Part shown: piece after piece, positions 12,457-48,903 of the stretch
Position numbering within the stretch: the first letter of the stretch is position 1
Layout of the letters: every line of letters starts with the position of its first letter
Assembly (NCBI GenBank): GCA_964525655.1
Contig: CAZGHZ010000002.1
Location: 22,897-86,896, forward strand
Length of the DNA: 64,000 nucleotides
Source: an uncultured Terracidiphilus sp.
GTDB taxonomy: Bacteria > Acidobacteriota > Terriglobia > Terriglobales > Acidobacteriaceae
Direction of reading: 5' to 3'
Position numbers and translations under genes: made by a program
Notes under the pieces: generated by a model
Seen by the model: only the letters and a program-made list of their open reading frames with translations
What the model was told of the DNA's origin: nothing
The model's database searches: none

Positions 12457-12582
12457 CACATTCTCCAGTTGTTTTCCCGATATTACCGCGTCCGGCCCTG
12501 GGGACGACATCGACTTGCAACTGCGCCCACTTCGCCACCGTCACTTTGTTCAGCCAACCAACCTTGTTATCCTTGCTTGCAG

Positions 12583-27612: not shown

Positions 27613-27626
27613 CCAAATCCATCCAA

Positions 27627-27662
27627 CTGCCGGCGGCTCAGGCCGCCGGCAGTGCCGTTTTT
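27627..27662 (+). terminator. Rho-independent terminator after the TonB-receptor gene
   Basis: 11-bp GC stem ctgccggcggc / gccgccggcag, loop tcag, followed by tgccgttttt. Confidence 0.75.
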
Positions 27663-27707
27663 CCCAAGGCGTGTTTTTTGCGCGAAAACCAACCACAAGG
27701 ACACCCG

Positions 27708-28856: not shown

Positions 28857-28959
28857 AGTCCTTTGCCAACCGCTCAAGAGGGAACTCCCGGTCGTCCGCT
28901 CAGCCAACGAGGCTTGCGGCCAACGAGAAGGGCTTGCTCTTCAAGGACTGAACGACCGA

Positions 28960-29820: not shown

Positions 29821-29860
29821 GAACCATTCATAGAGACAAGAGAGATAAGAGGATAGAGCG

Positions 29861-31000
29861 ATGACCGACGATTTGACGTTGAAGAATGCCAAAATCGTAA
29901 CGCCTACTGAAATTGTGGAAGGATCTGTCCATCTTCGCGACGGCTTGATTGCCGAGATTCAATCCGGAAAGAACGGACCGGCTAGCGCCATCGACCTCGA
30001 CGGCGACTACCTCATTCCCGGCCTCGTCGATCTGCACACCGATAATTTCGAGCGCCTTGTAAGGCCGAGGAACAGTGTGGATTGGCCGGTGACGGCTGCC
30101 TTGGTGGCGCACGACGCTCAGATGGTCTCCGCCGGAATCACCACCATCTTCGATTCGCTTTACGTAGGATTCCTCGGCTTCGGGTCCCGCAGCTTCGACA
30201 CGCTCAAGAATACGATCGCTGAGTTAGACACATGCCGGAGAAGTCTGATGTTTCGTGGAGATCACTTGCTCCACCTGCGCGCCGAGGTATCGATGGAAGT
30301 GATGCCCGAGCAGTTCGCCTCGGTTTATCCTGAGCCCAGCGTGCGGCTTGTTTCCCTGATGGATCATACGCCGGGACAGCGGCAGTGGAGAGATCTCGAC
30401 AAGTATGTCGCCATGGAGAAGAGGGATTTTCATCTCACGGAAGAAGAGATCAATAACTTCCTGAAGACTTCAAAAGAACGGCATGAGAAAGTCTCGCCGG
30501 CAAACCGCGTTAAGGTGATATCGATGGTGAAAGGTCATTCCGTGGTACTTGCCAGCCACGATGATACGACAGTCGAGCATGTCGATGCGGCTCATGCGGA
30601 GGGTATTACCGTTTCCGAGTTTCCCACGACAATCGAAGCGGCGGAAAGAGCGCGCGCCAGGGGAATGCATATCGTGGCCGGTTCGCCGAACCTGGTGTTG
30701 GGACGGTCGCACTCCGGCAATGTATCCGCGGAGGAACTTGCCCGCCGCGGCCTGCTGGATGCGCTTGCTTCCGATTATGTCCCATCCAGCCTGCTGCATG
30801 GCGCGTTCCTGCTCAACGAGAGGCTTGCAATGCCGCTGCCCGAGGCGATCAAGATGGTCACGATGGCTCCGGCGCGCATCGCAGGATTGCACGACCGCGG
30901 CAGCATCGAGACGGGCATGCGCGCCGATCTGGCGCGCGTGAAGATAGTGCAAGGCCTTCCACTTCCACTGGCGGTTTGGCGCGAAGGAGTGCGCGTGTGA
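29861..31000 (+). CDS. phnM: PhnM-family amidohydrolase, paralogue 2
   Basis: LIPGLVDLHTDNFE, SLMDHTPGQRQW, LASHDDTTVEH, SEFPTT, GSPNLVLGRSHSGNV, LASDYVPSSLL. 31 of the first 36 residues are identical to paralogue 1. Confidence 0.85.
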   Translation: MTDDLTLKNAKIVTPTEIVEGSVHLRDGLIAEIQSGKNGPASAIDLDGDYLIPGLVDLHTDNFERLVRPRNSVDWPVTAALVAHDAQMVSAGITTIFDSLYVGFLGFGSRSFDTLKNTIAELDTCRRSLMFRGDHLLHLRAEVSMEVMPEQFASVYPEPSVRLVSLMDHTPGQRQWRDLDKYVAMEKRDFHLTEEEINNFLKTSKERHEKVSPANRVKVISMVKGHSVVLASHDDTTVEHVDAAHAEGITVSEFPTTIEAAERARARGMHIVAGSPNLVLGRSHSGNVSAEELARRGLLDALASDYVPSSLLHGAFLLNERLAMPLPEAIKMVTMAPARIAGLHDRGSIETGMRADLARVKIVQGLPLPLAVWREGVRV

Positions 31001-31082
31001 TCGCCGAGCGACTGCGAATGCTCTTCGCTCCCAAACATCAGCACCTGAATCTCATCCGCTTTCTCATACAGAGGGACTGCGA

Positions 31083-31811: not shown

Positions 31812-31831
31812 TCGCCACTAGAATCGGTCGA

Positions 31832-32410
31832 ATGAATATTCATATTACCGGCGCTTCAGGAAGTGGCGTTACGACCTTAGGCAAGGCGCTGGCCCAAGAG
31901 TTGGGCTCTTTGCATCTCGACATCGACGATTATTTCTGGATGCCCACCGATCCGCCCTACACAACAAAGCGCCCGCGGGAGCTGCGACTGGCGCTGTTGA
32001 GGGAAGCGTTTGCACGAGCCTCCGGCACGGGATGGGTTCTCTCCGGCTCCATCCTGGAATGGGGCGATCCGCTGATACCGCTCTTCGACTTGGCGATCTT
32101 CGTTTCAACTCCGACGGAGTTGCGGCTGCAACGCCTTCGCGCGCGCGAGGCGGTCCAGTTCGGAGCCGAAGCGATTGCTCCCGGTGGCTCGCGACACAAA
32201 GAACATGAGTGGTTTATCGCATATGCCGCGGCTTACGACGAAGAGAAGCACGAGGGGCGCAGCCGCGCGCGACATGAGGCGTTGCTCGCCCAACTTCCTT
32301 GTCCTGTCTTGCGACTGGACGGAAGCCTGCCGATCTCCGCACTTGTGCAGCAAGTCATCAGCAAGCTGGGACAACTCAGCGAGTTGTCCCAGCTGCCGCA
32401 ACGGTTATAA
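31832..32410 (+). CDS. P-loop NTPase / small-molecule kinase-like protein (adenylate-kinase-like fold)
   Basis: Walker A ITGASGSGVTTLGKAL at the N-terminus; ~190 aa. Start at ATG 31832, or GTG 31808 overlapping the S51 stop. No guanylate-kinase-type PhnN motifs were recognised. Confidence 0.6.
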   Translation: MNIHITGASGSGVTTLGKALAQELGSLHLDIDDYFWMPTDPPYTTKRPRELRLALLREAFARASGTGWVLSGSILEWGDPLIPLFDLAIFVSTPTELRLQRLRAREAVQFGAEAIAPGGSRHKEHEWFIAYAAAYDEEKHEGRSRARHEALLAQLPCPVLRLDGSLPISALVQQVISKLGQLSELSQLPQRL

Positions 32411-33103
32411 GTATTTCTCGACAAACTCCTCGGCGCTGAGCTTGCGCAGGTCCGGCATTGCGAGTTCGAGCTTTTCGCGCGGCCAATCCCACCATGCAAT
32501 CTTGAGGAGTCCTTCCTGCACTTTTTCATCGAAGCGGAAGCGAATGAGTTTTGCGGGAACGCCGCCGACGATGGCAAACGGCGGCACGTCCTTAGAGACC
32601 ACCGCACCTGCTCCGACGCCGGCTCCTGTGCCGATCTTGACGCCTGGCAGAATCACCGCGCCGTGTCCGATCCACACATCGTTTCCAAGAGTGACCCGGT
32701 GCGCTTTGCGCCAACCGAAGAACTCTTCATCGTTTTCGACGGCAAAGCCGTAGGACTCGCTGCGGTAAGTGAAATGATGCAGCGCGGCGCGCCACATCGG
32801 GTGGTTGCCCGGATTGATGCGGTTGGCCGATGCAATGGAACAGAACTTTCCTATGTCGGCCCATACGATGCTGCATCCGTCGCAAACGTACGAATAGTCG
32901 CCGAAGGTGGACTCTCCCATCGAGGTGCGTGGGCCAATCGATGTGTAGGCCCCGAGCACGCACTCGCGAACGTGGGCGGTCGGATCGATGCGCGGTTCCA
33001 GCCCAAGCGGCTGTCTTCTGGGCCGTGCCTGATCCGCGGGTGGATCGGGCAGAGTTTCCATTGGTTCAAGGTGTGTCGTGGCCATGTCTTCCTCTCCATT
33101 CAT
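32405..33103 (-). CDS. Hexapeptide-repeat (LbH) acyl/acetyltransferase of the phosphonate-operon-associated family
   Basis: Left-handed beta-helix repeats (IGPRTSMGESTFGDYSYV, IWADIGKFCSIA, VWIGHGAVILPGVKIGTGAGVGAGAVV). Xenobiotic-acetyltransferase-like C-terminus. The family is described as occurring in C-P lyase operons (TIGR03308-type, from memory). Confidence 0.7.
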   Translation of the reverse strand: MNGEEDMATTHLEPMETLPDPPADQARPRRQPLGLEPRIDPTAHVRECVLGAYTSIGPRTSMGESTFGDYSYVCDGCSIVWADIGKFCSIASANRINPGNHPMWRAALHHFTYRSESYGFAVENDEEFFGWRKAHRVTLGNDVWIGHGAVILPGVKIGTGAGVGAGAVVSKDVPPFAIVGGVPAKLIRFRFDEKVQEGLLKIAWWDWPREKLELAMPDLRKLSAEEFVEKYL

Positions 33104-33125
33104 TGAATTGAATCGTCAATCGAAA

Positions 33126-34598
33126 TCAGTGGGCGGTTGTGTCCTCGAACTCCCGGCGCAGCATCGCCTCCACCTCGGGCAAGGACCTCATGCATTGCGA
33201 AAAAATGCGCTCATGGCTTGCGGCGCTGAAGCCCTCGATGCGCAACGAAAGAACGGCCTCTGTTCCGGACTCGCGGACCAGAACGACTCCGTCGCACAGG
33301 ACGAAACGGAGGCCGTCGATCTCCATGATGCCTGCCTCGGGAAATGCTGTCGCCAAAGCGGCCGCCGCCTTCGCGTAGGTGAGCAATCCGATTGGAATGC
33401 GCAACTCCGGCGTGGTGTAGATTCGAGGCAGACCGCGCCTGAGCTGAGCGAGGGACTGACCTCTACGTTGCACAATATCGAGAACGAAGAGGGCGGCAAA
33501 GAGTCCATCGTCTCCGCCATCCAGCTCCTTGAAAAAGTAGTGGCCGCAGGCGTCAAGGCCCAGTAGCGCCTGATCGGCCACCATCCGGCCGCGCATGAAG
33601 GCATGACCGGTACGTTCGAGGATCGGAACTCCTCGATTTTGCTCGATTGAGCGCCGTACGATGTCGGAGCACTTTACATCGACGACGATCTTGCCGTTCG
33701 TTGACCCGGTCCTCCGCTGCTCTTCAAGCACCGCGTCTGCCAACAGGAGAGCGATCTCATCTGGCGAAACGAATTCTCCATCTTCATCGACAAAGGCAAC
33801 ACGGTCGCCATCGCCGTCCCACGCAATGCCGATGGAGTTCGGTACTTCCACAACCGCGCGGCGCAAGCGCGTGAGATTGGATGCGCGTGAGCAATCGGGC
33901 GAGCGGTCAGGAAAGTTGCCATCGGCGATACACGAGATGCAGGCAACCGCGAAGCCAAGGCGCCGAAAAATCTCCGGCGCAACCTCCGACCAGGCTCCGT
34001 TTCCCGCATCAAGGACGACTCTGCGTGGAGCAGCCTTTCGGTGGTTGCTTTGACCGAGGCTATCCCAACGGGCGAGAGCGGTTTGAATGTACTCGTGGAT
34101 TATTTCGATCTGTTCGAACTTGCCCTGAATCGGGCCCTGGATCGAGCGAGAGGCGGGCTCCCTGGCCAATTCGCGGGCCAATTCGCGTATTTGTGCGAGT
34201 TGCTCCGGAGTCGTAGGCAGCGAGCCCAGCATCAGCTTCAGTCCATTGTGAGCGGCGGGGTTGTGCGAGGCGGTTACGATCAGCACGGCATCCGCGCCGA
34301 TGCGGCTGGCGGCAAAGTATGCCAGAGGCGTCGGGCCTTGTCCGGCATCGAGAACCTGAACGCCGGTTTGCAGCAGTCCCTCGCAGAGAGCGCTCTTCAA
34401 CTCCGGCGTACTCAACCTGAAGTCGCCCGCCACCAGAACGCGGGATGAGAGTGGAAGCAGAGTTCCAATGGCGCTGCCGATATCGCGAAAGAGGCGAGGC
34501 GAGACAACATCGGGATAGATGCCGCGAAGGTCGCAAGGCTTCCACGGGTCCGACTCCGGCAACAGCTCTTCGGTGTCCGTGGCAGTTCTCAATGTCAT
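33126..34598 (-). CDS. Alpha-D-phosphohexomutase superfamily enzyme (phosphomannomutase/phosphoglucomutase-like)
   Basis: Catalytic loop VTASHNPAAHNGLK, metal loop AWDGDGDRVAF, phosphate-binding VRESGTEAVLS. The sugar-binding loop is atypical (LERTGHAF instead of GEMSGH). Confidence 0.8.
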   Translation of the reverse strand: MTLRTATDTEELLPESDPWKPCDLRGIYPDVVSPRLFRDIGSAIGTLLPLSSRVLVAGDFRLSTPELKSALCEGLLQTGVQVLDAGQGPTPLAYFAASRIGADAVLIVTASHNPAAHNGLKLMLGSLPTTPEQLAQIRELARELAREPASRSIQGPIQGKFEQIEIIHEYIQTALARWDSLGQSNHRKAAPRRVVLDAGNGAWSEVAPEIFRRLGFAVACISCIADGNFPDRSPDCSRASNLTRLRRAVVEVPNSIGIAWDGDGDRVAFVDEDGEFVSPDEIALLLADAVLEEQRRTGSTNGKIVVDVKCSDIVRRSIEQNRGVPILERTGHAFMRGRMVADQALLGLDACGHYFFKELDGGDDGLFAALFVLDIVQRRGQSLAQLRRGLPRIYTTPELRIPIGLLTYAKAAAALATAFPEAGIMEIDGLRFVLCDGVVLVRESGTEAVLSLRIEGFSAASHERIFSQCMRSLPEVEAMLRREFEDTTAH

Positions 34599-35311
34599 AA
34601 AGGCCTCAAGCGAACGCGATCCAGAAGACGAAATGCTGCCCCCGGAAAGGCTTCGTGAAAGATGCAGATCGAGTCGATAAGCATCGGATGCTCACACGCC
34701 GATGCAAAGCGCGAGCGGAGATAAGGCTCGAAGAGCGAAAGGGACTTTGTGTGCATGGAACTGGTGAGCGACATATGGAACTTCCAGGTGTCGAAGACGT
34801 ACGGGTAGCCCCATCGCAGCACATGCGCCCGCTCGCTTGGGGAGAGTGAGCCGCGCAAGCGCTGAGTCGTCTCCTCTTCGGTTGCCGGAGCGCGAAAGCG
34901 ATCGAAGTAGCTGACGCTGTCGGCGGCGAGGCGAGAGAACTCCTCACTCGGCGCGGAGAGAATGAGAGCGAGGAAACGTCCAAGAGCGCCAACCTCGAGG
35001 AGAGGCGCGTAAAAGGCGTCGTGAGTGTAAGCGAATTCGGAAAGCGCCGCGTGCAAGTCCTCGAATGTGGCATTGTCCGCAAGCCGGAAGGGAGGCTTGA
35101 GGGTGGCATGAAAGCCATATCGGCGCGGACTATCGGTTACGCGCAACCAATCTTCATGCCGGATGTGGTCCGGCAGATTTGGCTCGATCGCAGCGCCGGT
35201 AACCGCGTCGCGGCCGAGCCATTGACTGCCCTGGTCGTAAAGCGGCGCGCTTGGGCTGGGGCAAAAATAAACTCCGTATCGTGAGGTCTTCCCGTTTAAC
35301 TCATGCATCAT
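34595..35311 (-). CDS. DUF1045 / 2H-phosphoesterase-family putative phosphonate metabolism protein
   Basis: RYGVYFCPSP..GSQWLGRDAVTG N-terminus typical of DUF1045. Two HxT/S motifs (GFHATLK, KFHMSLT). ATGA overlap with the phosphomutase gene. Confidence 0.75.
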   Translation of the reverse strand: MMHELNGKTSRYGVYFCPSPSAPLYDQGSQWLGRDAVTGAAIEPNLPDHIRHEDWLRVTDSPRRYGFHATLKPPFRLADNATFEDLHAALSEFAYTHDAFYAPLLEVGALGRFLALILSAPSEEFSRLAADSVSYFDRFRAPATEEETTQRLRGSLSPSERAHVLRWGYPYVFDTWKFHMSLTSSMHTKSLSLFEPYLRSRFASACEHPMLIDSICIFHEAFPGAAFRLLDRVRLRPL

Positions 35312-39417: not shown

Positions 39418-39897
39418 ATGGGTTCTGGAATGACAACCGAAATTCAGAACGGGAATTCGAATGGAACAGGCCGCCTTGGACTGGGCCCCGACTACACGCT
39501 GTGTGAATGCGATTTGGAGCCGCTGAAGCAGTTGGTTTCGCGGCTGGAACTGTCTCATCCGGTAGAAATCCGGAGAACCCCTTCGGTCTGCCTGACGATG
39601 GTCTCCGCCGAAGACTCGCTGGAAAGCCAGAAGTTCTTTCTCGGCGAGGCTCTCACGACCGAGTGCGAGGTTGCGGTTGAAGGGCAACCCGGATTCGGTC
39701 TTTGCCTGGGCGATGAGCCGGTCAGGGCCTATTGCATCGCGGTCGTAGACGCGCTGTTGCATGGGGAGCGTCCTGCCCTGGGCGAGATCGAAGCCTTCCT
39801 TCGCGAGCAGGGAAAGATTGTCGCGCGCAGGGATCAGGATGAATTTGATTTAGTGCTCCAGACGCAGGTTGACTTCAAGCTGATGGAGGAGGAATGA
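39418..39897 (+). CDS. phnG: Phosphonate C-P lyase system protein PhnG
   Basis: Size and sequence resemble PhnG (SVCLTMVSAEDSLESQKFFLGEALTTECEVAV..GFGLCLGDEPVRAYCIAVVDALL). It is the first gene of a phnGHIJKL run. Confidence 0.8.
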   Translation: MGSGMTTEIQNGNSNGTGRLGLGPDYTLCECDLEPLKQLVSRLELSHPVEIRRTPSVCLTMVSAEDSLESQKFFLGEALTTECEVAVEGQPGFGLCLGDEPVRAYCIAVVDALLHGERPALGEIEAFLREQGKIVARRDQDEFDLVLQTQVDFKLMEEE

Positions 39898-40517
39898 GCG
39901 CTTTGGCGGAAGTAAAGCCCTACAACCAGGTCTTCGATGGCCAGAAACACTACCGGACTCTGCTGCAATGCACAGCGCGGCCAGGAACTATCGGTCAACT
40001 TGACGATGCCAAGGTGGAAGTTCCATCGCAACTGAACCGCGCTACCGCGCTGCTTGCGCTCGCGCTCTTCAGCGGGGACATCACGTTCTGGATCAATGAA
40101 GGGGCAGCGGCCGCCGCGAATTTCATTCAGCGCGAGACCAATGCCATGACGGCCCCTGCGGATAAGGCCGATTTCCTGGTTTTTACCGACATCGACCGGA
40201 TCGAGGAGCTTTTACAAGCAAAGCAGGGCACTCTCTCGTTTCCGGACCTGGGCGCGAGCGCGGTGCTGCAGGTTCAAGCCATCTCTCCGGCTCCGCTGGC
40301 GGAGTCGTTGCGTCTGAGACTCACAGGGCCGGGAATTGAAACGGAGACAGTGGTTTTTGTTTTGGGCGCATCCGAGGCATTCTTTGAGACTCTGCGGGAA
40401 CGGAATGCGGAGTTTCCGATCGGCGTGGATACTTTCTTGACCTGCGACAGCTTGTCGGCGGGTCCGTGTGTCATGGCTCTGCCCCGCACTACACGCGTGC
40501 ATTGGGAGCGGGTTTAA
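39894..40517 (+). CDS. phnH: Phosphonate C-P lyase system protein PhnH
   Basis: FDGQKHYRTLLQCTARPGTI, LRLTGPGI, FPIGVDTFLTC and ALPRTTRV match E. coli PhnH landmarks. ATGA overlap with phnG. Confidence 0.85.
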   Translation: MSALAEVKPYNQVFDGQKHYRTLLQCTARPGTIGQLDDAKVEVPSQLNRATALLALALFSGDITFWINEGAAAAANFIQRETNAMTAPADKADFLVFTDIDRIEELLQAKQGTLSFPDLGASAVLQVQAISPAPLAESLRLRLTGPGIETETVVFVLGASEAFFETLRERNAEFPIGVDTFLTCDSLSAGPCVMALPRTTRVHWERV

Positions 40518-40553
40518 GAGCAGCTTCAACCGTTTTGCTGGGATGGTGGCGAT

Positions 40554-41717
40554 ATGGGTTATGTAGCAGTCAAGGGCGGAGAGGACGCGATCGGGAACGC
40601 GAATAAACTGGTTGACTACTTCCGTTGGAAGGGCCGGACCAAGCCGATCGAACTCGATCAGGCGCGCACTCAGATGCGGCTGGCAGTGGACCGGGCCATG
40701 GGCGAGGGATCGCTCTATGCGCCGGAGTTGGCAGCGCTGGCGCTGCTGCAAGTGGAGGGCGACACCTTCGAAGCGGCGTTTCATTTGCGCGCCTACCGCG
40801 CGACGCTCGAGCGCCGCTACACTTCTGAGGTCATCGACACGCGAGAGATGTTCGTGCAGCGCCGCATCTCTTCAACCTTCCGCGATATACCTGGCGGCCA
40901 GATCCTCGGCCCCACGCGGGACTATTCTTTCCGGCTTCTGAATCCCGCCCTGCTCAATGCCAGCCTCGGCTCGATCGAGAAGTTTATCGCCGATCTCAAA
41001 GACGAGATCGATCCCAAGAAACTGCATGAGATGACCACTTACAAGAAAGTTATCGACATCTTCCTGAAGGAAGGCCTGATGAGCAGGAAGCCGCGTGAGG
41101 GCGAAGACCGGCGCGTCTTCGATGTAACCCGCGAGGCGATCAAGTTCCCGGTGCCGCGTTCCGCCGCGTTGCAGATGCTGGCCCGCGCGGACACGGGCGC
41201 GCTGATGTGCATGGCTTACAGCACCATGCGCGGCTTCGGCATGTCGCACGGAACGGTGGGCGAGTTGCGCGTCGGGGACGTGCTGGTGAAGGTTGTGGAC
41301 AAGCGCGGACGGACGCGCATCATCGGCAAGATCAAGGTTACCGAGGCAGAGATGGTCGGCGGCTCCGGCCGCGGCCAGACAGCCGATAGCGGCCGCGCGG
41401 CAAAAAGGAGTCCAGCGCCGCGGTACTCGATCGGCTACGGTCTTTGCTTTGGCCAGAACGAGACCAAGGGCATCTGCATGGGCATGGTGGAAAGCGCGCT
41501 GCGCACCCCGAATCCTGACAATCCCGCAAACAATCAGGAGTTCGTTCTGTATCACACCGAGGTGATTGAGGGTTACGGATTTACCAACCACCTCAAGCTG
41601 CCGCACTATGTCACCTTCCAGGCGGGAATGGAAGGCGCTCGCAGAAACGCCAGGAGAAACGCGGAACAAGGAAAGCAAGTGGCCGTGAGCGCGGGCGTGG
41701 AGGAAAACAATGATTGA
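40554..41717 (+). CDS. phnI: Phosphonate C-P lyase system protein PhnI
   Basis: MGYVAVKGGEDAIGNA, LAVDRAMGEGSLYAPELAALALLQVEGD, HLRAYRATL and IGYGLCFGQNETK match PhnI. Confidence 0.9.
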   Translation: MGYVAVKGGEDAIGNANKLVDYFRWKGRTKPIELDQARTQMRLAVDRAMGEGSLYAPELAALALLQVEGDTFEAAFHLRAYRATLERRYTSEVIDTREMFVQRRISSTFRDIPGGQILGPTRDYSFRLLNPALLNASLGSIEKFIADLKDEIDPKKLHEMTTYKKVIDIFLKEGLMSRKPREGEDRRVFDVTREAIKFPVPRSAALQMLARADTGALMCMAYSTMRGFGMSHGTVGELRVGDVLVKVVDKRGRTRIIGKIKVTEAEMVGGSGRGQTADSGRAAKRSPAPRYSIGYGLCFGQNETKGICMGMVESALRTPNPDNPANNQEFVLYHTEVIEGYGFTNHLKLPHYVTFQAGMEGARRNARRNAEQGKQVAVSAGVEENND

Positions 41718-42594
41718 AAACCTCAAGTTCCAGCATAGTTTCAACTATGCCTACATCGACGAGTACACCAAGAAAGAGATCCGCCGCAAGACGCTCAAGG
41801 CGGTTTGCATACCCGGCTATCAGGTTCCTTACTCATCGCCGGAGATGCCGATCTCGCGCGGGTGGGGAACGGGCGGCTTGCATGTCACGCTTTCTCTGGT
41901 CGGGCCCGACGATGTGCTCAAGATCATCGACCAGGGCAGCGACGCCAGCGTGAACGCCTGCAATCTGCGCAACTTCGTCAAAGAGATGTCCAACTGCGCT
42001 TTGACCTTCGACACGGCGGAGGCGACGCTGATCCAGACTCGCCATCGCGTTCCCGAAGAGATCTTGACCGAGAAGCAGATCCTGGTTCTCCAGGTGCCGC
42101 AGCCGGAGGTTCTCCGCGGCGTGGAGAGACACGAGGCCAAGACTCGCATCATGCACGGGGAGGCCGATTACGCCAAGATCTGGGTGACCCTTTACGAGGC
42201 CTATGTAAGAACCGGCGGGCTGCGCAGCGGGGCCGGCCATCCCATGATGGTCAACGGGCGTTATGTTGCCACGCCCTCTCCGATTCCGAGCTGGGATGTG
42301 CCGAATCTGAGCATGGCCCGCTGCCTCTATCTCTTTGGCGCGGGACGCGAAAAGCGCATCCACTGCGTTCCTCCCTTCACACGCGTCGAGCCGCTTGAGT
42401 TTGAAGATATCCGATTCAAGGTTGAGGAGTTTGCCGGCGTCAGGTGCTCCGTGTCGGGCCAGGACAAGGCCTTTATGGATCAGATCTACGCCGACGACCT
42501 GAGCAGCAGTTATGTGGTCAACGACAGCAACTTCCTTGACAAACTGCGGAAGGGTCCCCGGCCGCCGCAAAGACTTTTTACCAATCCCGAATAG
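41710..42594 (+). CDS. phnJ: PhnJ homologue (alpha-D-ribose 1-methylphosphonate 5-phosphate C-P lyase family) lacking the canonical Cys motif
   Basis: YAYIDEYTKKEIRR, IPGYQVP, GWGTGG, LIQTRHR, VNGRYV, LFGAGREKR and VPPFTRVE are colinear with E. coli PhnJ. The C-terminal CX2CX21CX5C is reduced to a single Cys (RCSVSGQ...VVNDSNFLD). Confidence 0.85.
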   Translation: MIENLKFQHSFNYAYIDEYTKKEIRRKTLKAVCIPGYQVPYSSPEMPISRGWGTGGLHVTLSLVGPDDVLKIIDQGSDASVNACNLRNFVKEMSNCALTFDTAEATLIQTRHRVPEEILTEKQILVLQVPQPEVLRGVERHEAKTRIMHGEADYAKIWVTLYEAYVRTGGLRSGAGHPMMVNGRYVATPSPIPSWDVPNLSMARCLYLFGAGREKRIHCVPPFTRVEPLEFEDIRFKVEEFAGVRCSVSGQDKAFMDQIYADDLSSSYVVNDSNFLDKLRKGPRPPQRLFTNPE

Positions 42595-42596
42595 AA

Positions 42597-43448
42597 ATGA
42601 AGGCCGCGATGGATAACCATTGGTTGTTGCGTGTTCGTAACCTGTCGAAAGTCTACGGCGAAGCTACGCCGGAAGTGCTTGAACGGACAGGACCGAGATT
42701 CAACTCGAATGTCTGCCCGAGGACCGGAGCTGTCGTCGCCGTAAGCGGCATCAATTTCGATCTCTATCCGGGCGAGGTGCTTGGCGTCGTCGGAGAGAGC
42801 GGCTCAGGCAAGAGTACGCTGGTTCAGATGCTCTACTTCGACCAGGAGGCGACTTGGGGCGAGGTGAACTTCAAGCCCGTCGAAGACGGCGCGGCCAACC
42901 TGTTCGATCTTTCCAACCAGAAGAAGCGCTACATTCGCAATCACCTGATGGGCATGGTCTATCAGAATCCACGCGACGGTTTGAATTTCCGCTTTTCGTC
43001 GGGAGGCAATATCGCCGAGAAGCTGCTGATGGCCAATGTATTTCATGTTGGAAAGATTCGCATCCGCGCCACCGACCTGCTGACGAAGACTGAAGTTCCG
43101 GTCAAGCGCATGGATGAGTCGCCGGCGCGCTTCAGCGGCGGCATGCAGCAGAGAGTGCAGATCGCCAAGGCGATGGCCAACAACCCGCCGCTTCTCTTGT
43201 TGGACGAGGTAACCAGCGGGCTGGATGTCTCAGTGCAGGCAAAGGTGCTCGACCTGATTCGCGGCCTGCAGCGTGATCTCGGCGTCTCGATGATCGTCGT
43301 CTCTCACGATCTTGGCGTGATACGGATGTTGACCGACCGCACCATGGTTCTCAAGCACGGCCAGATTGTTGAGCAGGGACTGACCGACCAGATCCTGCAA
43401 GACCCGCAAGATGGATACACGCAGCTTCTGGTCAGTTCGCTGCTCTAA
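42597..43448 (+). CDS. phnK: Phosphonate C-P lyase system ATP-binding protein PhnK
   Basis: GESGSGKST, FSGGMQQRVQIA, LLLDEVTSGLDVSVQA and the C-terminal PQDGYTQLLVSS resemble E. coli PhnK. Confidence 0.88.
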   Translation: MKAAMDNHWLLRVRNLSKVYGEATPEVLERTGPRFNSNVCPRTGAVVAVSGINFDLYPGEVLGVVGESGSGKSTLVQMLYFDQEATWGEVNFKPVEDGAANLFDLSNQKKRYIRNHLMGMVYQNPRDGLNFRFSSGGNIAEKLLMANVFHVGKIRIRATDLLTKTEVPVKRMDESPARFSGGMQQRVQIAKAMANNPPLLLLDEVTSGLDVSVQAKVLDLIRGLQRDLGVSMIVVSHDLGVIRMLTDRTMVLKHGQIVEQGLTDQILQDPQDGYTQLLVSSLL

Positions 43449-43492
43449 CTTGAGCAAATACGGACGGCCCGAGCCGAAGAGACGAGGAGCAG

Positions 43493-44206
43493 ATGGAAAA
43501 AATATTGAGAATTGTGGACCTGCAAAAACGGTTCGAGCTACACATCCTCAATGAGAAATCGATTGAGGCGCTGCATCAGGTCTCATTCGAGATGGACGAG
43601 GGGGAGATCATCGGACTCACCGGCAAGACCGGCTCGGGCAAATCCACCTTGATGAAATGCATCTATCGAACCTATCTCGCCACTGAGGGCAAGATACTCT
43701 ACGCAACCGGCCAGGGAAAGACCGTCGACCTTGCCAGCGCAAACGAGCATGAGGTTCTTCGGATTCGCAGATCTGAGATGACCTATTGCTCGCAGTTTCT
43801 CCAGGTCATTCCCCGCGTGCCTGCGCTCGATGTGGTTGCCTCGGCCCTTGTGTCGCGCGGCACCACGCTTGAAGAGGCAAGGAAGCTCACGTGCGAGTGC
43901 CTGGAACGGCTGAGCCTTCCTTCGGATCTGTGGGATGCCTATCCGGCGACCTTCAGCGGCGGCGAGCAGCAGCGCATCAACATTGCCCGCGCCATGATCT
44001 CGCGTCCGCGCATTCTGCTGGTCGATGAACCGACGGCCTCTCTCGATCTGAAGACCAAGGATGCGGTGATCGAAATGCTGCTCGATCTCAAGCGGGCCGG
44101 AACGTCGATCATTCTGATTACTCACGACGAACATACGTTGCGGAGAATGGCCGAACGCTCGCTGAATCTGGAAAACGGGCATCTCAAAGAAGTTGTCTAC
44201 GCTTGA
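43493..44206 (+). CDS. phnL: Phosphonate C-P lyase system ATP-binding protein PhnL
   Basis: GKTGSGKSTL, SQFLQVIPRVPALDVV, PATFSGGEQQRINIAR and LLVDEPTASLD match PhnL. Confidence 0.88.
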   Translation: MEKILRIVDLQKRFELHILNEKSIEALHQVSFEMDEGEIIGLTGKTGSGKSTLMKCIYRTYLATEGKILYATGQGKTVDLASANEHEVLRIRRSEMTYCSQFLQVIPRVPALDVVASALVSRGTTLEEARKLTCECLERLSLPSDLWDAYPATFSGGEQQRINIARAMISRPRILLVDEPTASLDLKTKDAVIEMLLDLKRAGTSIILITHDEHTLRRMAERSLNLENGHLKEVVYA

Positions 44207-44211
44207 GGGGA

Positions 44212-45153
44212 ATGATGAAGCGCCTGTGGAAGAGTCTGATCGTGCTTTCCATCGCGATGCTGTGTCTCTCGCTGGGCAGTTGCAGGGCAAGCCATGCGAG
44301 CGATGGACGGCCGGCAGTGTTGCACTTTGCATTTTCTCCGCAACAGGAGCAGTTAGAAGGGGGCGGGCTGCGCAAGGAGTTGATGCGCAAGTATCTTCAG
44401 GAACAACTGCACATGCCGGTCGATGTCGTAAAAGTAGAAGGATACGCCTCGACCATCGAGGCCATGCGCACGGAAAAGATAGATCTTGCAAACTTCGGTT
44501 CGCTTAGCTACACCATCGCGGCGCAGACTGCGGGCGCCGAGGCGATTACGGCCATGGGTAATCCCGACGGCACACTGGGTGGTTATCGGTCTGTGATCGC
44601 AGTGCCTAGAAACAGCCCGTATCACTCTCTTCAGGATTTGAAGGCTCATGCGAAGGATATTGTCTTTGCTTTTGGCGATCCTGCTTCGACCTCCGGCAAT
44701 CTCTATCCCCGCGTGGGCCTGCTGAACGCGGGCATCAATCCGGAGAAAGACTTTAAGAAGGTAATCTTCGCCGGCACGAGTCAACCTGCAACGGTCCTGA
44801 TGATTAAAGCAGGCAAAGTTGATGCGGGAGGGTTTATGCAAGCCGCAGCTAACCGGTTGCTCCTCACGCATAAGATTGATGCCTCCGACATCAATGTGAT
44901 TTGGACCTCGGATCCTATTCCTAACTCCTGCTATGCCGTTCGCAAGGGGCTTCCTGAACAACTGAAGAAGGATATTCAGGCGGCGTTGATTGCAATTCCC
45001 ACCAAAGATCCTGCGCTCTGGGCTAATCTTCTTAGCCTGCGGAGCACAATGTCGATCACTGGAACGCAATATGTCCCGGTCAAAGACTCGGACTATGACG
45101 GGCTCAGAAGATATTCGGGCCAGGTCAAGGACTTCAACTTTGTAGAAAAGTAG
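44212..45153 (+). CDS. phnD: Phosphonate/phosphite ABC transporter substrate-binding lipoprotein PhnD
   Basis: Lipobox LSLGSC; PhnD-like FGDPASTSGNLYP and position before phnC/phnE. Start set at ATG 44212; the track TTG at 44203 overlaps the phnL stop. Confidence 0.8.
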   Translation: MMKRLWKSLIVLSIAMLCLSLGSCRASHASDGRPAVLHFAFSPQQEQLEGGGLRKELMRKYLQEQLHMPVDVVKVEGYASTIEAMRTEKIDLANFGSLSYTIAAQTAGAEAITAMGNPDGTLGGYRSVIAVPRNSPYHSLQDLKAHAKDIVFAFGDPASTSGNLYPRVGLLNAGINPEKDFKKVIFAGTSQPATVLMIKAGKVDAGGFMQAAANRLLLTHKIDASDINVIWTSDPIPNSCYAVRKGLPEQLKKDIQAALIAIPTKDPALWANLLSLRSTMSITGTQYVPVKDSDYDGLRRYSGQVKDFNFVEK

Positions 45154-45159
45154 GCTTCC

Positions 45160-45999
45160 ATGCTTCATGTTTCTAACATTGTCGTAAAACTCCCGAGTGG
45201 CAAGCGGCTAGTCGACCGGGTAAGTTTCACGGTCGGTCGGGGCGAGTTCGTTGGAATTCTCGGATCGAGCGGAGCCGGCAAGTCTCTCACACTTCGGTGC
45301 ATTGTTGGACTCACAAAGCCTAACGAAGGCGAAATCACGCTCAACAGTCCATCCGGCAAGAGCTATCGCTCGACGAATGTTGGCCCGAAGGAATTGCGCA
45401 GGGCGCGTCGCCACATTGGACTTATCTTTCAAGGATCGAATCTGGTCAAGCGACTCACGGTCCTGGAGAATGTGATGCTCGGCCGCCTTGGGCACATCAG
45501 TCCTGTGCGCAGTTGGCTTCTTGGCTTCAAGGACTCCGAAGCGCGCGAAGCAATGGTGGCGCTGGACGGAGTCAAGATGGCCCCGTTTGCCGCGCGGCTG
45601 GCCGGTTCGCTCAGCGGCGGCGAAATGCAGCGCGTCTCTATCGCTCGAGCTATGCATCAGCGGCCCTTGATCTATCTTGCCGATGAGCCGATCTCCAGCC
45701 TCGACCCAAAGAATGCGGATGCGATCATGTCGATCCTACAGCCTCTCTCGCGAGAGACGCCGGTGATCGGCGCCTTTCATCAGCCGGCAGCCGTTGCCAG
45801 GTATTGCACACGCGCCATAGGCATACGCATGGGCAAGATCGTCTACGACGGCCCGGCGCAAATCTCGGCTCGTCAACTCGAATACATCTATGGCGGATCG
45901 GACGGAGAACCTGGCTCGCAGGCCTGGGAATCGGACTCGCAGCCGCCTTTCTTCGATTCCGGCATCGAGGCCGCGCTGCATCAAGGGGTGGCCGTCTAA
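45160..45999 (+). CDS. phnC: Phosphonate ABC transporter ATP-binding protein PhnC
   Basis: GSSGAGKS, IGLIFQGSNLVKRLTVLENV, LSGGEMQRVSIARA, LADEPISSLDP. Confidence 0.88.
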   Translation: MLHVSNIVVKLPSGKRLVDRVSFTVGRGEFVGILGSSGAGKSLTLRCIVGLTKPNEGEITLNSPSGKSYRSTNVGPKELRRARRHIGLIFQGSNLVKRLTVLENVMLGRLGHISPVRSWLLGFKDSEAREAMVALDGVKMAPFAARLAGSLSGGEMQRVSIARAMHQRPLIYLADEPISSLDPKNADAIMSILQPLSRETPVIGAFHQPAAVARYCTRAIGIRMGKIVYDGPAQISARQLEYIYGGSDGEPGSQAWESDSQPPFFDSGIEAALHQGVAV

Positions 46000-46839
46000 A
46001 TGGGTCTATCGAATTCACAGTCGTCCCGGCAAGAGCCTCCGTTCCTGGAATGGAAGCAAAGCATCACCGGCCGGCGCAGGAAGCTGGCTACCGTTGTCGT
46101 TGTTCTGGCTCTTTTGGTCGCTTTCACGTCATGGCGTTGCGATGTCAGTCTTGGGTCGCTGATTACGGGATACGAGCGAATCGTTCCGCTGCTGGGAATG
46201 TTCTTTCCCCCGGATTGGTCAGGACTGGTTGGCATGCTGCAGCCGCTCGCGGTCACCGTCGTGCTGGCGATGGCGGCCACAATCATGGGTATGTGCCTGT
46301 CTTTGCCTTGCGCGCTTGCTGCGTCCTCAAACCTCGCGCCCGGACCGATGCGCTTGGCCATGCGTGCATTCATCGCGCTGGAGCGGGGCTTGCCGGAGAT
46401 TGTCCAACTGCTTCTGCTCATCGCCATATTCGGATTGGGCGTCGTACCCGGTCTCATTGCGCTCTCCATCAGCAGCATTGGGATGCTGGCCAAACTGCTT
46501 GCCGACGCAATTGAAGAGATTGAACCGCAGATGCTCGAGGCCGTGGCTGGAACAGGCGCCACGCGGTCACAGGTCATTCGCTATGCGGTCGTTCCGCAGA
46601 TTCTTCCAGCATTGTTTGCCAATGGCCTGTTTCAGTTTGAATTCAACGTTCGTACAAGTATCATCCTTGGCGCGATCGGCGCAGGCGGAATCGGGTATGT
46701 GATGAGAACCTCCATGATGTCCATGGACTATCGAACCTCCTGCATGGCCACTCTGCTCACGCTCGCCCTGGTCTTCTCGACGGAACGAGTATCGGACTTC
46801 CTTCGAGCGCGCATCCTAAGCGGAGGGTTGCTGCGATGA
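46000..46839 (+). CDS. phnE: Phosphonate ABC transporter permease PhnE (1 of 2)
   Basis: Polytopic permease with the PhnE-type motif EAVAGTGATRSQVIRYAVVPQILP. Its start abuts the phnC stop. Confidence 0.85.
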   Translation: MGLSNSQSSRQEPPFLEWKQSITGRRRKLATVVVVLALLVAFTSWRCDVSLGSLITGYERIVPLLGMFFPPDWSGLVGMLQPLAVTVVLAMAATIMGMCLSLPCALAASSNLAPGPMRLAMRAFIALERGLPEIVQLLLLIAIFGLGVVPGLIALSISSIGMLAKLLADAIEEIEPQMLEAVAGTGATRSQVIRYAVVPQILPALFANGLFQFEFNVRTSIILGAIGAGGIGYVMRTSMMSMDYRTSCMATLLTLALVFSTERVSDFLRARILSGGLLR

Positions 46840-47660
46840 GCATCGATGTCCCAGCCGGCGCTCTGCCGTCGCGCAAATTCCGCCTCACGATCGTCTACAT
46901 TGTGTCAGTGTTTGCCACATTGTTCTTTCTGTTCTGGTTTCTGGATCTAAGCCCGGATAGCATCTTCGTTGACTTCCGCTTTATTCCGGATCTCGCGCAC
47001 CAGATGTTTCCCCCCAACATCGCTCTTCTCTGGACCAAGAGCGCGATGTTGACCTCATTGATCGAGACGCTGTCGATGGCCTTCCTGGCCACCGTCTGCG
47101 GTGGCGGCATGGCTCTGCTCCTTGCATTTCTCGCCGCAACCAATACCACGCCGCATCAGCTCATTAGGGTCGCCGTACGCGCCTTACTGGCCATGGAGCG
47201 CTCGGTACCGCAATTGGTTGTCATTCTTGTGTTGTTGATTGCCGTCGGCATTGGACCCTTCGCAGGAGTGTTGGCTCTGACGATCGGTTCAATGGGAATG
47301 TACGGCAAGTTTTTCGCCGACGCTATCGAACAGGCCGACAGAGCGATTCTTGAATCCGTGCAGAGCGTGGGAAGCACCCGCATGCAGACGATTCGCTATG
47401 CGGTGCTGCCGCAGGTGATGCCGTCATTTGTTGCAAATCTGTTTTATGCCTTCGACTACAATCTGCGCTTGGCCGTTCCCCTGGGTATCTTCGGCGGTGG
47501 CGGCATCGGCTTTGAACTTGAATTTGCTCGCGGCCTGCTTCACTACAAGGATGTGATGGCGTACACCATTCTGATCGTAGTGATGATTACCGCCATGGAA
47601 CGTATCTCCGACTGGGTGCGCCGCAGCATCATCACGCAACCGCAACTGGTCACTAAGTGA
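46836..47660 (+). CDS. phnE: Phosphonate ABC transporter permease PhnE (2 of 2)
   Basis: ESVQSVGSTRMQTIRYAVLPQVMP motif. ATGA overlap with the first phnE. Confidence 0.85.
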   Translation: MSIDVPAGALPSRKFRLTIVYIVSVFATLFFLFWFLDLSPDSIFVDFRFIPDLAHQMFPPNIALLWTKSAMLTSLIETLSMAFLATVCGGGMALLLAFLAATNTTPHQLIRVAVRALLAMERSVPQLVVILVLLIAVGIGPFAGVLALTIGSMGMYGKFFADAIEQADRAILESVQSVGSTRMQTIRYAVLPQVMPSFVANLFYAFDYNLRLAVPLGIFGGGGIGFELEFARGLLHYKDVMAYTILIVVMITAMERISDWVRRSIITQPQLVTK

Positions 47661-47694
47661 CGCAATTGAAACAAGGGAGCCTCTGAAAAAAGCC

Positions 47695-48903
47695 ATGACG
47701 GAGACCATACTGACCAATGCCCATATTGTTTGCCCCGACAGGGAATTCGATGGTTCGCTCGTGCTCGAAGACGGAATCATTGCCGAAATCCTGTCGTGTC
47801 ATCTTGCCAGTGGAATCGATCTGCATGGCGCCGTCCTGATCCCCGGCGTCATCGATATCCACACCGATTATCTCGAGCGCGAGATCAGCCCGCGGCCGAC
47901 GGCCAAGATCCCGCTTGAGCTGGCGTTGCATGTGATGGATCTGCGCGCTCTCAGTTGCGGCCTGACGACCGTGAGCACCGCGGCCCGCATTTCTGAGGAG
48001 CGCGAAGGCCATCCAGGCTCCTGGCGTGGAGACGGACTGGCGTTGGCGAAGAGATTTCAAGAGCTGATTCCGGAACTGCGCGCGCACCATCTGATCCATG
48101 TTCGCTGGAACACGAGCTTTACGCCGGACGAATCGGTTCTCGATCAGTTGCTGGAACTTAAGAGCATCGCCAATCTGGTCTTCAACGACGATATGCCCGG
48201 CCAGCGCCAGTTCCGTGACATTGAGGCGCTGCTCCAACAGCAAGCCACCCGCCAGAACATCTCCATCGAAGAGGCGCGGGCGCGGATGCAGGAGCGCATC
48301 GAACGGGCCAGCAAGATTAACAACCGGATGATGGTCAAGGCTCGCGTGGCCGGCAGGATTCCCCTAGGCAGCCACGACGACACCACAGTCGAGCACGTCA
48401 TCGAAGCATACGAGTCCGGAGCCAGCCTGTGCGAGATGCCGTGCTCGATCGAAGCCGCGCGGAAGGCAAAGGAACTGGGCATGATGGTCTGCATGGGCGC
48501 GCCGAACTACTACCGCGGCGGTTCCCACTGCGGCAATCTCTCCTGCCACGATGCGATGGCGGAAAACCTGGTCGACATCATCTGCAGCGACTATCATTTT
48601 CCGTCGATGCTAGCCTGCGCCCTTCGTATGGCCAAGGAAGGCATGACGCTCTCCGAGGCGATCAAATTGTTTACCCTGAATCCGGCGCGGCATCTAGGGA
48701 TGGCGGAGAGAACCGGCAGCATTGAAGTTGGCAAGCAGGCCGACCTCGTGGCTTTCCATCCGCACAACGGTTACGGAGATGTCGCTCGTGTCTGGGTTGA
48801 CGGCAAGGAACGCTACTCATCCCTCATGGACAGAGAAAACCGGAGACAGCCGGCACTTGAAGATTGCGATCAACTGGAGGAGGATGCTGTTTCAGCCAAT
48901 TGA
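47695..48903 (+). CDS. phnM: PhnM-family amidohydrolase, paralogue 3 (operon-terminal)
   Basis: LIPGVIDIHTDYLE, DDMPGQRQF, LGSHDDTTVEH, GAPNYYRGGSHCGN, CSDYHFPSML, GKQADLV. More divergent than paralogues 1 and 2. Confidence 0.8.
   Translation: MTETILTNAHIVCPDREFDGSLVLEDGIIAEILSCHLASGIDLHGAVLIPGVIDIHTDYLEREISPRPTAKIPLELALHVMDLRALSCGLTTVSTAARISEEREGHPGSWRGDGLALAKRFQELIPELRAHHLIHVRWNTSFTPDESVLDQLLELKSIANLVFNDDMPGQRQFRDIEALLQQQATRQNISIEEARARMQERIERASKINNRMMVKARVAGRIPLGSHDDTTVEHVIEAYESGASLCEMPCSIEAARKAKELGMMVCMGAPNYYRGGSHCGNLSCHDAMAENLVDIICSDYHFPSMLACALRMAKEGMTLSEAIKLFTLNPARHLGMAERTGSIEVGKQADLVAFHPHNGYGDVARVWVDGKERYSSLMDRENRRQPALEDCDQLEEDAVSAN

Follow-up and report, generated by a model that had tools for sequence, protein, structure and literature searches.

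Bacteria draw phosphorus from unactivated phosphonates mainly through C-P lyase, which is also the source of 'aerobic' methane from methylphosphonate. The reference system is that of Escherichia coli, whose PhnJ, the alpha-D-ribose 1-methylphosphonate 5-phosphate C-P lyase, is known from structures 4XB6 and 7Z15-7Z19. The textbook mechanism is a radical one: cysteines C241, C244 and C266 form the triad of a radical-SAM cluster, C272 is the proposed thiyl-radical residue, and Gly32 is the glycyl-radical site. Structural biologists call this mechanism unresolved. The solved structures place 30 A between Gly32, the bearer of the radical, and the proposed Fe-S site, which is occupied by zinc (PMC9947105).

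A second described system comes from a hot-spring cyanobacterium, Synechococcus JA-2-3B'a(2-13), also called OS-B'. In their abstract, Gomez-Garcia et al. (2011, ISME J 5:141) reportedly describe the release of methane or ethane by this strain from the respective phosphonates. It has a full phn cluster, and its growth with phosphonates as sole phosphorus source has been reported (PMC5955973); its relative OS-A, which is without the operon, shows no heterotrophic dark growth on phosphonates (PMC9600594).

The phn operon of the window and its PhnJ

The window, that is, the whole 64-kb stretch of DNA that was analysed, contains a phnGHIJKLM operon whose phnJ, an open reading frame without internal stop, is placed between phnI and phnK as in E. 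coli. The features discussed below are collected in Table 1.

Table 1. Positions, in the 64-kb window, of the phn genes and of the PhnJ codons under discussion.
Feature	Position	Strand	Basis or remark
Two more phnM paralogues, around a GNAT gene	27678..31000 (27678-28856 and 29861-31000)	+	
Accessory phosphonate genes	32405..35311	-	Syntenic in Acidobacteriaceae loci
TIGR03308 hexapeptide transferase	32405-33103	-	
PGM/PMM-family mutase	33126-34598	-	
DUF1045/TIGR03223 'Phn operon protein'	34595-35311	-	
phnG	39418..39897	+	PF06754, E=7e-21
phnH	39894..40517	+	PF05845, E=7e-41
phnI	40554..41717	+	PF05861, E=7e-120; Zn-ligand His (E. coli H328, H333) conserved
phnJ, Cys-poor subfamily ('clade A')	41710..42594	+	294 aa; PF06007 and E. 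coli PhnJ structures
G36 codon, E. coli Gly32	41815..41817	+	Identical in every PhnJ aligned, Cys-poor or canonical
C84 and C96 codons	41959..41997 (41959-41961 and 41995-41997)	+	Val in E. coli, Ala in clade B
C205 and C219 codons	42322..42366 (42322-42324 and 42364-42366)	+	Ligands proposed by the sequence-only reading
C246 codon, E. coli C241, sole motif Cys retained	42445..42447	+	Cys in 120/120 clade-A homologues
S249 codon, E. coli C244 column	42454..42456	+	Ser/Thr in almost every member of clades A and B
V270 codon, E. coli C266 column	42517..42519	+	Val/Ile/Met/Leu in all Cys-poor members
L276 codon, E. coli C272 column	42535..42537	+	Leu/Met/Ala/Val in all Cys-poor members
C-terminal tail G-P-RPPQRLFTNPE, clade-specific, conserved	42553..42591	+	Alignment of 120 homologues; absent from E. 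coli PhnJ
phnK, ABC ATPase	42597..43448	+	Best match TIGR02323, 238 bits, under its cut-off
phnL, ABC ATPase	43493..44206	+	TIGR02324, 254.6 bits, cut-off 256.3
phnD-phnC-phnE-phnE, phosphonate ABC importer	44203..47660	+	TIGR01098/TIGR03431, TIGR02315, TIGR01097 twice
In-operon phnM paralogue, divergent, 11 Cys	47695..48903	+	NF011984, 294 bits, over cut-off

The family of the protein, first proposed from the sequence alone, is confirmed by its matches. It covers positions 2-273 of the 275 of the Pfam profile PF06007 (E=2.2e-117, 391 bits for a cut-off of 25), and it matches the E. coli chains 7z15_D and 4xb6_D over residues 10-275 (HMMER, E=1e-84), with approximately 48-49% identity over 266 residues. 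An AF2 model (pLDDT 71.6) matches chain 7z19_D with E=4e-33 and TM 0.79/0.83; the fold is that of the solved PhnJ, shared at a TM of about 0.8. Also shared with E. coli are Gly32, here G36 within the invariant motif IPGYQVP, the motifs GWGTGG, QTRHR and GAGREKR, and the first motif cysteine. In contrast, the window protein carries the added conserved tail RPPQRLFTNP, three to five extra cysteines at hydrophobic positions, and Ser, Val and Leu in place of C244, C266 and C272.

As had been claimed, none of the ten phn genes around it is disrupted; they overlap or are at most 44 nt apart. The operon is adjoined by genes to process the cyclic phosphate that it produces, and by further phn accessory genes; unlike that of E. 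coli, it does not contain phnF, phnN, phnO and phnP, and genes for a DUF1045 protein, a mutase and a hexapeptide transferase are nearby instead. Compared with TIGR02318, the in-operon PhnM scores 325 bits, under the cut-off of 390.55, and the two further paralogues score 406 and 438 bits, over it.

The four cysteine columns in two lineages

Column equivalences were taken from the HMMER alignment and from MAFFT alignments, and both bear out the claim that three of the four canonical cysteines are missing. Of the E. coli cluster triad, the window PhnJ has the equivalent of C241 only, namely C246, with no cysteine anywhere downstream of it. The sequence-only reading had located the other losses at +25 and +31 from C246: the residues there, N271 and D277, were counted correctly, but they are not the homologous ones, since a one-residue deletion in the alignment puts V270 and L276 in these columns; the loss of the cysteines stands regardless. 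It was also right in reading substitutions rather than a frameshift, since the same residues are found in 120/120 independent homologue clusters and in 16 genome loci. More generally, a frameshift or a sequencing error is ruled out, because these residues recur in many loci and in over 240 protein clusters that are independent of each other. The loss is not a chance fluctuation either, because 94 of the 97 PhnJ of an arbitrary metagenome sample have cysteines at all four columns.

We define here the Cys-poor subfamily as the otherwise canonical PhnJ, encoded in a complete phn operon, that have Ser or Thr in the column of C244, Val, Ile, Leu or Met in that of C266, and Leu, Met, Ala or Val in that of C272. 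The window PhnJ, its matches in two groups that we call clade A and clade B, and the proteins of Thermus and Synechococcus all belong to it. Among the columns that are invariant in canonical PhnJ, none but the three cysteines is lost in every Cys-poor lineage. A further candidate signature of cysteine loss, F37Y, is true of clades A and B and fails in Thermus and Synechococcus, where Phe is kept.

Clade A is the group of the window. The closest 120 relatives of the window PhnJ, at 72-93% identity, come from Acidobacteriota, Verrucomicrobiota and Bacteroidota, and the three cysteines are missing in 120/120; they are also missing in the 16 genome loci, which represent three phyla and all have intact syntenic operons. 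The phnGHIJKL-DCEE-M operons of the relatives are intact. A search for orthologues sharing the variant had been suggested: the pattern of one retained and three lost cysteines is common to the closest 120 clusters, and C205 and C219 are not kept in all. Calculated over the entire phnJ gene, dN/dS is 0.07, and over the C-terminal domain 0.16; together with the conservation across the clade, the former value upholds the earlier argument against decay.

A second Cys-poor lineage, with the same three cysteines missing, is formed by Chloroflexota, Thermus/Meiothermus/Deinococcus and hot-spring Synechococcus, and includes Thermus thermophilus HB8 (plasmid pVV8) and OS-B'. The Chloroflexota relatives, clade B, are without the three cysteines in 120/120, and 11 of them have no cysteine at all; the C241 equivalent is Cys in only 84% of the clade. 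At the four columns, the OS-B' protein (ABD01166.1) has C, S, I and M, and the HB8 protein has C, T, V and M. Like the window PhnJ, these two proteins keep Gly32 and belong to complete phn operons, and a related G-P-LF tail is found in Thermus and Synechococcus; unlike it, they belong with Chloroflexota to a separate lineage, at 52-53% identity to the window PhnJ (53% for OS-B'). Cysteine content also separates the lineages: the clade of the window is Cys-rich, whereas in HB8 and OS-B' PhnG, PhnH and PhnI have zero cysteines and PhnJ has one or two. Such a near-absence makes a Cys-ligated [4Fe-4S] cluster impossible in these core complexes. The use of phosphonates is reported at the level of the organism for OS-B', a member of the sister lineage and not of clade A; for clade A it is predicted from sequence.

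Neighbor-joining trees were computed on the core domain alone, with 200 bootstraps. Clade A is recovered in 199/200, clade B in 193/200, the Thermus type in 196/200, and the union of clade B and the Thermus type in 198/200. All Cys-poor PhnJ appear as one group in only 17/200, and canonical actinobacterial PhnJ interleave with them. Judging from these trees, two losses of the cysteines seem likelier than one. In the alignments, the Cys-poor PhnJ is a trait of at least two large lineages, not the peculiarity of one genome; full-text literature searches found no description of a Cys-less PhnJ. In the 50%-identity representative library, the PhnJ family is reduced to a few clusters and fragments, which makes that library uninformative here.

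Competing readings of the Cys-poor PhnJ

The reading that we favour, and hold to be reasonably probable from these comparisons, is that the Cys-poor PhnJ is the catalytic subunit of a functional C-P lyase, and represents a distinct and widespread subfamily whose chemistry would be independent of the E. coli-type cluster and of Cys272.

Its first competitor is that in clade A the [4Fe-4S] cluster sits on other cysteines and the radical-SAM chemistry is unchanged. The ligands would then be found among C84, C96, C205, C246 and C33 of PhnJ, or in the Cys-rich PhnG, PhnH, PhnI or PhnM. The clade-A Phn proteins are indeed enriched in cysteine (3.8% in PhnG, 2.7% in PhnM, 2.0% in PhnJ) compared with 0.69% for the 26 other open reading frames of the window. 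Over the 120 homologues, C84 and C246 are Cys in 100% and C96 in 99%, and the PhnG of most members contains a CxC motif.

Several observations speak against it. The triad C205/C219/C246, proposed in the sequence-only reading with correct coordinates for the first two residues, is ruled out on conservation: the C219 column is Cys in 67% of the closest 120 relatives and Ala in the remainder; the C205 column is Cys in 97% of clade A, with Thr or Asn instead in the members from Chthoniobacterales and Tenacibaculum (L015, L017); and the second Cys-poor lineage has Cys at neither column. The triad C84/C96/C246 is disfavoured by geometry, since a 14-residue helix, predicted with confidence (residues 81-94, AF2), separates C84 from C96, so that the two would be approximately 15 A or more apart and are not expected to bind one cluster; moreover, canonical PhnJ, too, can have Cys at the C96 column. 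A move to PhnG fails as well, because conservation of the CxC motif does not extend to the whole of clade A: together with C58, it is missing in the Bryobacteraceae and Tenacibaculum members. The clade-specific cysteines are mostly changes from Ala, Ser or Val, spread over all subunits. Finally, the core complex of the sister lineage is essentially without cysteine, so that no relocation is needed to explain the loss. A relocated cluster thus seems unlikely.

It is also conceivable that the complex has acquired another substrate, or a reaction that does not cleave C-P bonds, and that its annotation as C-P lyase misleads. The residues of the known mechanism are missing, PhnG, PhnK, PhnL and the in-operon PhnM score under the NCBIfam equivalog cut-offs, and the window holds three PhnM paralogues. 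We consider such a change of function improbable, given that a phosphonate importer of the PhnCDE type and the phn-specific accessory genes TIGR03308 and TIGR03223 are linked with this operon, that nearly all other invariant residues of PhnJ and the Zn ligands of PhnI are kept, and that OS-B', whose PhnJ is Cys-poor, uses phosphonates (PMC5955973).

There is likewise little probability in a division of labour, in which the cleavage would fall to a canonical PhnJ, or to another radical enzyme, encoded elsewhere in the same genome, the Cys-poor PhnJ being a structural or regulatory paralogue. No direct pointer leads toward it, and in a complete operon it is the Cys-poor phnJ that takes the place of the catalytic gene. 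Neither the 64-kb window nor any retrieved 20-kb locus of relatives contains a second phnJ, and no gene-length open reading frame of the window has a CxxxCxxC motif. In the literature, OS-B' is said to have one C-P lyase cluster only.

The suggestion that the protein is an inactive relic, with PhnJ catalysis lost and the operon decaying or kept as a scaffold, appeals to the missing residues that are essential in E. coli, and is made very improbable by the purifying selection noted above, a pattern common to more than 240 independent clusters, intact operons in four or more phyla, conserved clade-specific C-terminal tails, and the use of phosphonates by OS-B' (PMC5955973).

A candidate chemistry and its consequences

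Under the favoured reading, a functional C-P lyase with a Cys-poor catalytic subunit, the four-Cys metal site would be replaced by a metal-free C/S/V/L arrangement, and the remainder of the system would be kept: Gly32, nearly all canonical invariant residues, PhnGHIKLM, the importer and the accessory genes. The reaction, from 5-phosphoribosyl-1-alkylphosphonate to the 1,2-cyclic phosphate and alkane, is most likely unchanged, while the route through a PhnJ-borne [4Fe-4S] cluster and a Cys272 thiyl radical would be closed. Radical chemistry centred on Gly36 may be retained, with the invariant C246 as a putative thiol relay in place of Cys272; this is plausible because in E. coli C241 and Cys272 share one metal ion, and are thus side by side. 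Such a relay cannot be general, given the 84% of Cys at its column in clade B. The radical itself would have to be initiated from outside PhnJ, and this initiator has no candidate, since no radical-SAM gene (PF04055) is found among the operon neighbours in loci L027, L029, L151 and L153. The main alternative would be a cleavage of the C-P bond, without Fe-S cluster, at the conserved PhnI-His/Zn site.

Two analogies may help in judging this proposal. Zinc-ribbon ribosomal proteins exist as C+ and C- paralogues, the latter with hydrophobic or polar residues instead of the four-Cys knuckle, and with fold and role kept. The metal is there purely structural, whereas the cysteine site of PhnJ is assigned a catalytic role, as radical-SAM cluster and thiyl radical. 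Glycyl-radical enzymes, such as pyruvate formate-lyase with PflA, offer a possible model of a conserved Gly carrier whose radical is generated by a separate polypeptide; however, they have no kinship of sequence or fold with PhnJ, and no gene for the dedicated radical-SAM activase that characterises such systems adjoins the examined phn operons. Counting against the proposal, Kamat et al. (2011 and 2013) reportedly found the cysteines and Gly32 to be essential in E. coli.

The textbook radical mechanism is probably not universal, because the Cys-poor PhnJ form lineages that are large and conserved, and a cyanobacterium reported to grow on phosphonates belongs to one of them. We put forward more tentatively, and at somewhat less than even confidence, the wider conjecture that several phyla may have a C-P lyase core without Fe-S cluster or thiyl-forming Cys272, which would release the alkane by a route other than that of E. 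coli, either by cleavage at the PhnI-His/Zn site or through a Gly radical begun by an unlinked factor. If the cluster-free reading is true, the four-Cys site of E. coli would be a feature of its lineage, and not the essence of the enzyme.

Natural lineages of PhnJ that are without Cys272 and the ligands of the cluster open the mechanism of C-P lyase directly to experiment, and one of these lineages includes both the genetically tractable T. thermophilus HB8 and a cyanobacterium reported to use phosphonates. Either these enzymes work without the cluster, and the mechanism has to be revised, or they should reveal an initiating partner not known so far. The cysteine columns also bear on surveys that use phnJ as a marker of methane production from methylphosphonate, some of which check for 'four conserved cysteines' (PMC11978286): the acidobacterial and Chloroflexota phnJ of soils, peat and mats fail this check, and are counted or discarded whatever their activity.

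Cysteine columns of the window protein

By homology, the product of phnJ is a PhnJ protein: it matches the Pfam family PF06007 nearly end to end (391 bits, E = 2e-117), and over residues 10-275 it aligns with the E. coli PhnJ chains (4XB6, 7Z15-7Z19; E = 1e-84), which bears out the family assigned in the sequence-only reading. That reading also held that three of the four motif cysteines are lost, and we find the same. With columns matched through the alignment to the E. coli structure chains and through independent MAFFT alignments, Gly32, Cys241, Cys244, Cys266 and Cys272 correspond to G36, C246, S249, V270 and L276, and no cysteine lies downstream of residue 246. The residues it had named at +25 and +31, N271 and D277, were correctly counted, but a one-residue deletion shifts the homologous columns back by one; the substance is unaffected. 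Two of the three sequence features that define radical-SAM PhnJ were tested and found lacking, and the protein should therefore not be classed with the E. coli-type enzymes. The ten neighbouring phn genes are intact, as had been stated, and also tightly packed. The observation is thus confirmed, and its interpretation is supported in part only.

Two cysteine-poor lineages

The same loss recurs in orthologues, which form a lineage that we call clade A. In a collection of 5.8 billion proteins, C244, C266 and C272 are absent from all of the best 120 matches (72-93% identity), and a scan of one genome per GTDB species, yielding 25 loci, found the pattern in Terracidiphilus/Acidobacteriaceae MAGs about 94% identical to the window, and in Vicinamibacterales, Bryobacteraceae, Opitutales, Chthoniobacterales and a Tenacibaculum MAG, with identity down to 65%. 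At every clade-A locus of the scan, phnJ lies within the same phnGHIJKL-D-C-E-E-M operon. Pairwise comparison of 15 clade-A phnJ genes gives a dN/dS of 0.07 over the full length and of 0.16 over the C-terminal domain; the domain that formerly held the Cys site is thus maintained by purifying selection in its altered form, which includes a conserved tail, G-x-RPPQRLFTNP, absent from E. coli. One Acidobacteriota MAG carries two tandem PhnI-like frames 5' of phnJ (64% and 61% identity to the window PhnI), and in a long-read MAG the phnJ frame is broken, open only from residue ~80 on, probably through an assembly indel rather than as a pseudogene.

Two Chloroflexota loci of the scan lack the three cysteines, yet are unlike clade A. 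A search with one of these proteins listed 120 relatives (Anaerolineae, Phototrophicaceae, Chloroflexales, Roseiflexaceae), in all of which the three columns hold Thr/Ser, Leu/Val/Ile and Ala/Met/Leu; a cysteine equivalent to C241 is kept in only 84% of them, 11 of the 120 have no cysteine, and no further column of their alignment is conserved as Cys. Using tblastn against plasmids, we found the same type, 293 residues with one cysteine, on plasmid pVV8 of Thermus thermophilus HB8; a search with it reached Meiothermus, Deinococcus oregonensis and an 83%-identical cluster that includes ABD01166.1, encoded by CP000240.1, that is, Synechococcus sp. JA-2-3B'a(2-13) (OS-B'). The OS-B' PhnJ has two cysteines, with C, S, I and M at the motif columns. 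The pVV8 operon is a complete phnCDE-GHIJKLM in a model thermophile, its seven C-P lyase proteins holding three cysteines in sum; we found no report on its function in the literature.

Neighbor-joining trees were built from the PhnJ core domain alone, excluding the Cys region, with 200 bootstraps. Clade A (199/200), the Chloroflexota clade (193), the Thermus/Synechococcus group (196) and the latter two together (198) are all recovered, as against only 17/200 for all Cys-poor sequences together, and canonical actinobacterial proteins interleave with them. On these trees, two independent losses are the likelier history. As a measure of rarity, metagenome contigs were scanned for a nucleotide pattern encoding the universal motif GWGTGG...DQG, giving 120 arbitrary PhnJ genes: where the C-terminus is present (n = 97), 94 have all four cysteines and three, all of the Chloroflexota/Thermus type, are Cys-poor. 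In general, then, conservation of the four-Cys motif is very strong, and Cys-poor forms are a small minority, about 3% of the sample. Recent work states or assumes conservation of the four cysteines (PMC11978286; PMC9947105; PMC12413358), and a full-text literature search, with subscription journals mostly outside its scope, returned no description of a Cys-less PhnJ; earlier notice is possible.

Proposed mechanism and its alternatives

Gomez-Garcia et al. (2011) are reported to have found that OS-B', given the matching phosphonate, frees methane or ethane; such alkane release is the hallmark of C-P lyase. The weightiest evidence for activity is that PMC5955973 credits this strain with a full phn cluster and with growth on phosphonates as sole P source; its relative OS-A, which has no phn operon, shows no heterotrophic dark growth on phosphonates (PMC9600594). 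This evidence is organism-level and comes from the sister lineage rather than from clade A; nevertheless, growth and alkane release on phosphonates are what the sequence-only reading had proposed to test, and they speak against an inactive protein. In Thermus HB8 and OS-B', judging from the encoded proteins, the core complexes cannot hold a Cys-ligated [4Fe-4S] cluster, because PhnG, PhnH and PhnI have no cysteine and PhnJ has one or two; this lineage thereby decides the general question of whether the cluster has merely moved.

We lean towards a working C-P lyase in the window, in which the four-Cys metal knuckle of PhnJ would have given way to a metal-free arrangement unable to use the E. 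coli scheme, and so without an intrinsic [4Fe-4S]/SAM site or a Cys272 thiyl radical as in E. coli. The overall reaction would be the same, Gly36 would still carry a radical, and radical initiation would come from elsewhere, with no candidate gene: there is no radical-SAM gene beside any operon examined, and no CxxxCxxC motif in gene-length ORFs of the 64-kb window. In clade A, C246 might substitute for Cys272, since Cys241, its equivalent, neighbours Cys272 at a shared metal site in the E. coli structure (PMC9947105; PMC11978286); such a relay could not operate in the 16% of Chloroflexota proteins in which that cysteine is missing. Cys-poor PhnJ bears directly on the mechanism of C-P lyase, its lineages supply tractable test organisms, and it matters wherever phnJ serves as a marker of methane formation from methylphosphonate.

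A serious alternative is an Fe-S-cluster-free route at the PhnI/PhnJ zinc site; the PhnI histidines that hold the zinc of this second putative active site (H328, H333) are kept everywhere. A cluster relocated within clade A is unlikely. The proposed triad C205/C219/C246 does not stand up: 67% of clade A has Cys at C219 and the remainder Ala, two clade-A phyla have Thr or Asn at C205, and neither column is Cys in the other Cys-poor lineage. The cysteines invariant in clade A are C84, C96 and C246. C84 and C96 sit at opposite ends of a well-predicted 14-residue helix, a geometry that would keep them from both reaching one cluster, and the C96 column holds Cys in canonical PhnJ too. The most suggestive motif for a moved cluster, a CxC in PhnG, is missing in Bryobacteraceae and Tenacibaculum members.

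Neofunctionalisation has a low probability: the three cysteines aside, every column invariant in canonical PhnJ is retained in at least one Cys-poor lineage, and phosphonate accessory genes sit just upstream of the window operon. We give an equally low probability to the presence of a canonical phnJ at another place in the same genome. An inactive relic is hardly credible under the purifying selection described.

As to composition, clade-A Phn proteins are Cys-enriched (PhnG 3.8%, PhnM 2.7%, PhnJ 2.0%, PhnL 1.7%, against 0.69% in 26 other window ORFs), though the functionally assigned cysteines are lost, and the Thermus/Synechococcus/Chloroflexota lineage is almost Cys-free. The extra cysteines, mostly replacing Ala, Ser or Val, are spread across all subunits.

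Genes around the operon

Coordinates of features in the window and at other loci
Feature	Sequence	Position	Strand	Remark
TonB-dependent-receptor-like outer-membrane protein	window	23800-27612
PhnM paralogue	window	27678-28856	+	out of operon
GNAT acetyltransferase	window	28708-29820
PhnM paralogue	window	29861-31000	+	out of operon
Peptidase S51	window	31083-31811
PRK06217 kinase-like protein	window	31778-32410
MsbA/CydDC-like ABC exporter pair	window	35338-39236	-	divergent from phnG
TIGR03308 hexapeptide transferase	window			just upstream of operon
DUF1045/TIGR03223 'Phn operon protein'	window			just upstream of operon
PGM-family mutase	window			just upstream of operon
Phn proteins (Cys content)	window	39418-48903
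phnJ	window	41710-42594	+	294 residues, no internal stop
phnG, H, I, K, L, PhnD-type binding protein, phnC, two phnE, phnM	window			intact
In-operon phnM	window	47695-48903	+	11 Cys
Two PhnI-like ORFs	L011	7557-9992
Broken phnJ	L018	10001-10886
PF03372 gene	L027 (Chloroflexota)	12483-13262
PF03372 gene	L029 (Bryobacter-like)	16801-17556
phn operon	pVV8, NC_017767.1	19025-26935

The transferase is the 'act' gene, reported to be induced together with phn genes in Vibrio (PMC12413358). With the additional two genuine PhnM paralogues that lie just upstream of the operon, the window has three; this pair exceeds the TIGR02318 equivalog cut-off of 390.55 (406 and 438 bits) and, at 42% and 39% identity, is nearer to E. 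coli PhnM than the in-operon copy (33%, 325 bits). The block around them, 23800-32410, is possibly a second module that takes up and processes organophosphorus compounds. At the Chloroflexota and Bryobacter-like loci, a gene of the PF03372 endonuclease/exonuclease/phosphatase family closes the phn operon and may process the cyclic phosphate in place of PhnP or DUF1045. The operon-proximal block (transferase, mutase, DUF1045, exporter pair) keeps its synteny in related Acidobacteriaceae; the exporter arrangement is kept at 70-84% identity in L001-L009 and L018, and a similar pair adjoins phnG at the Opitutales locus L014.
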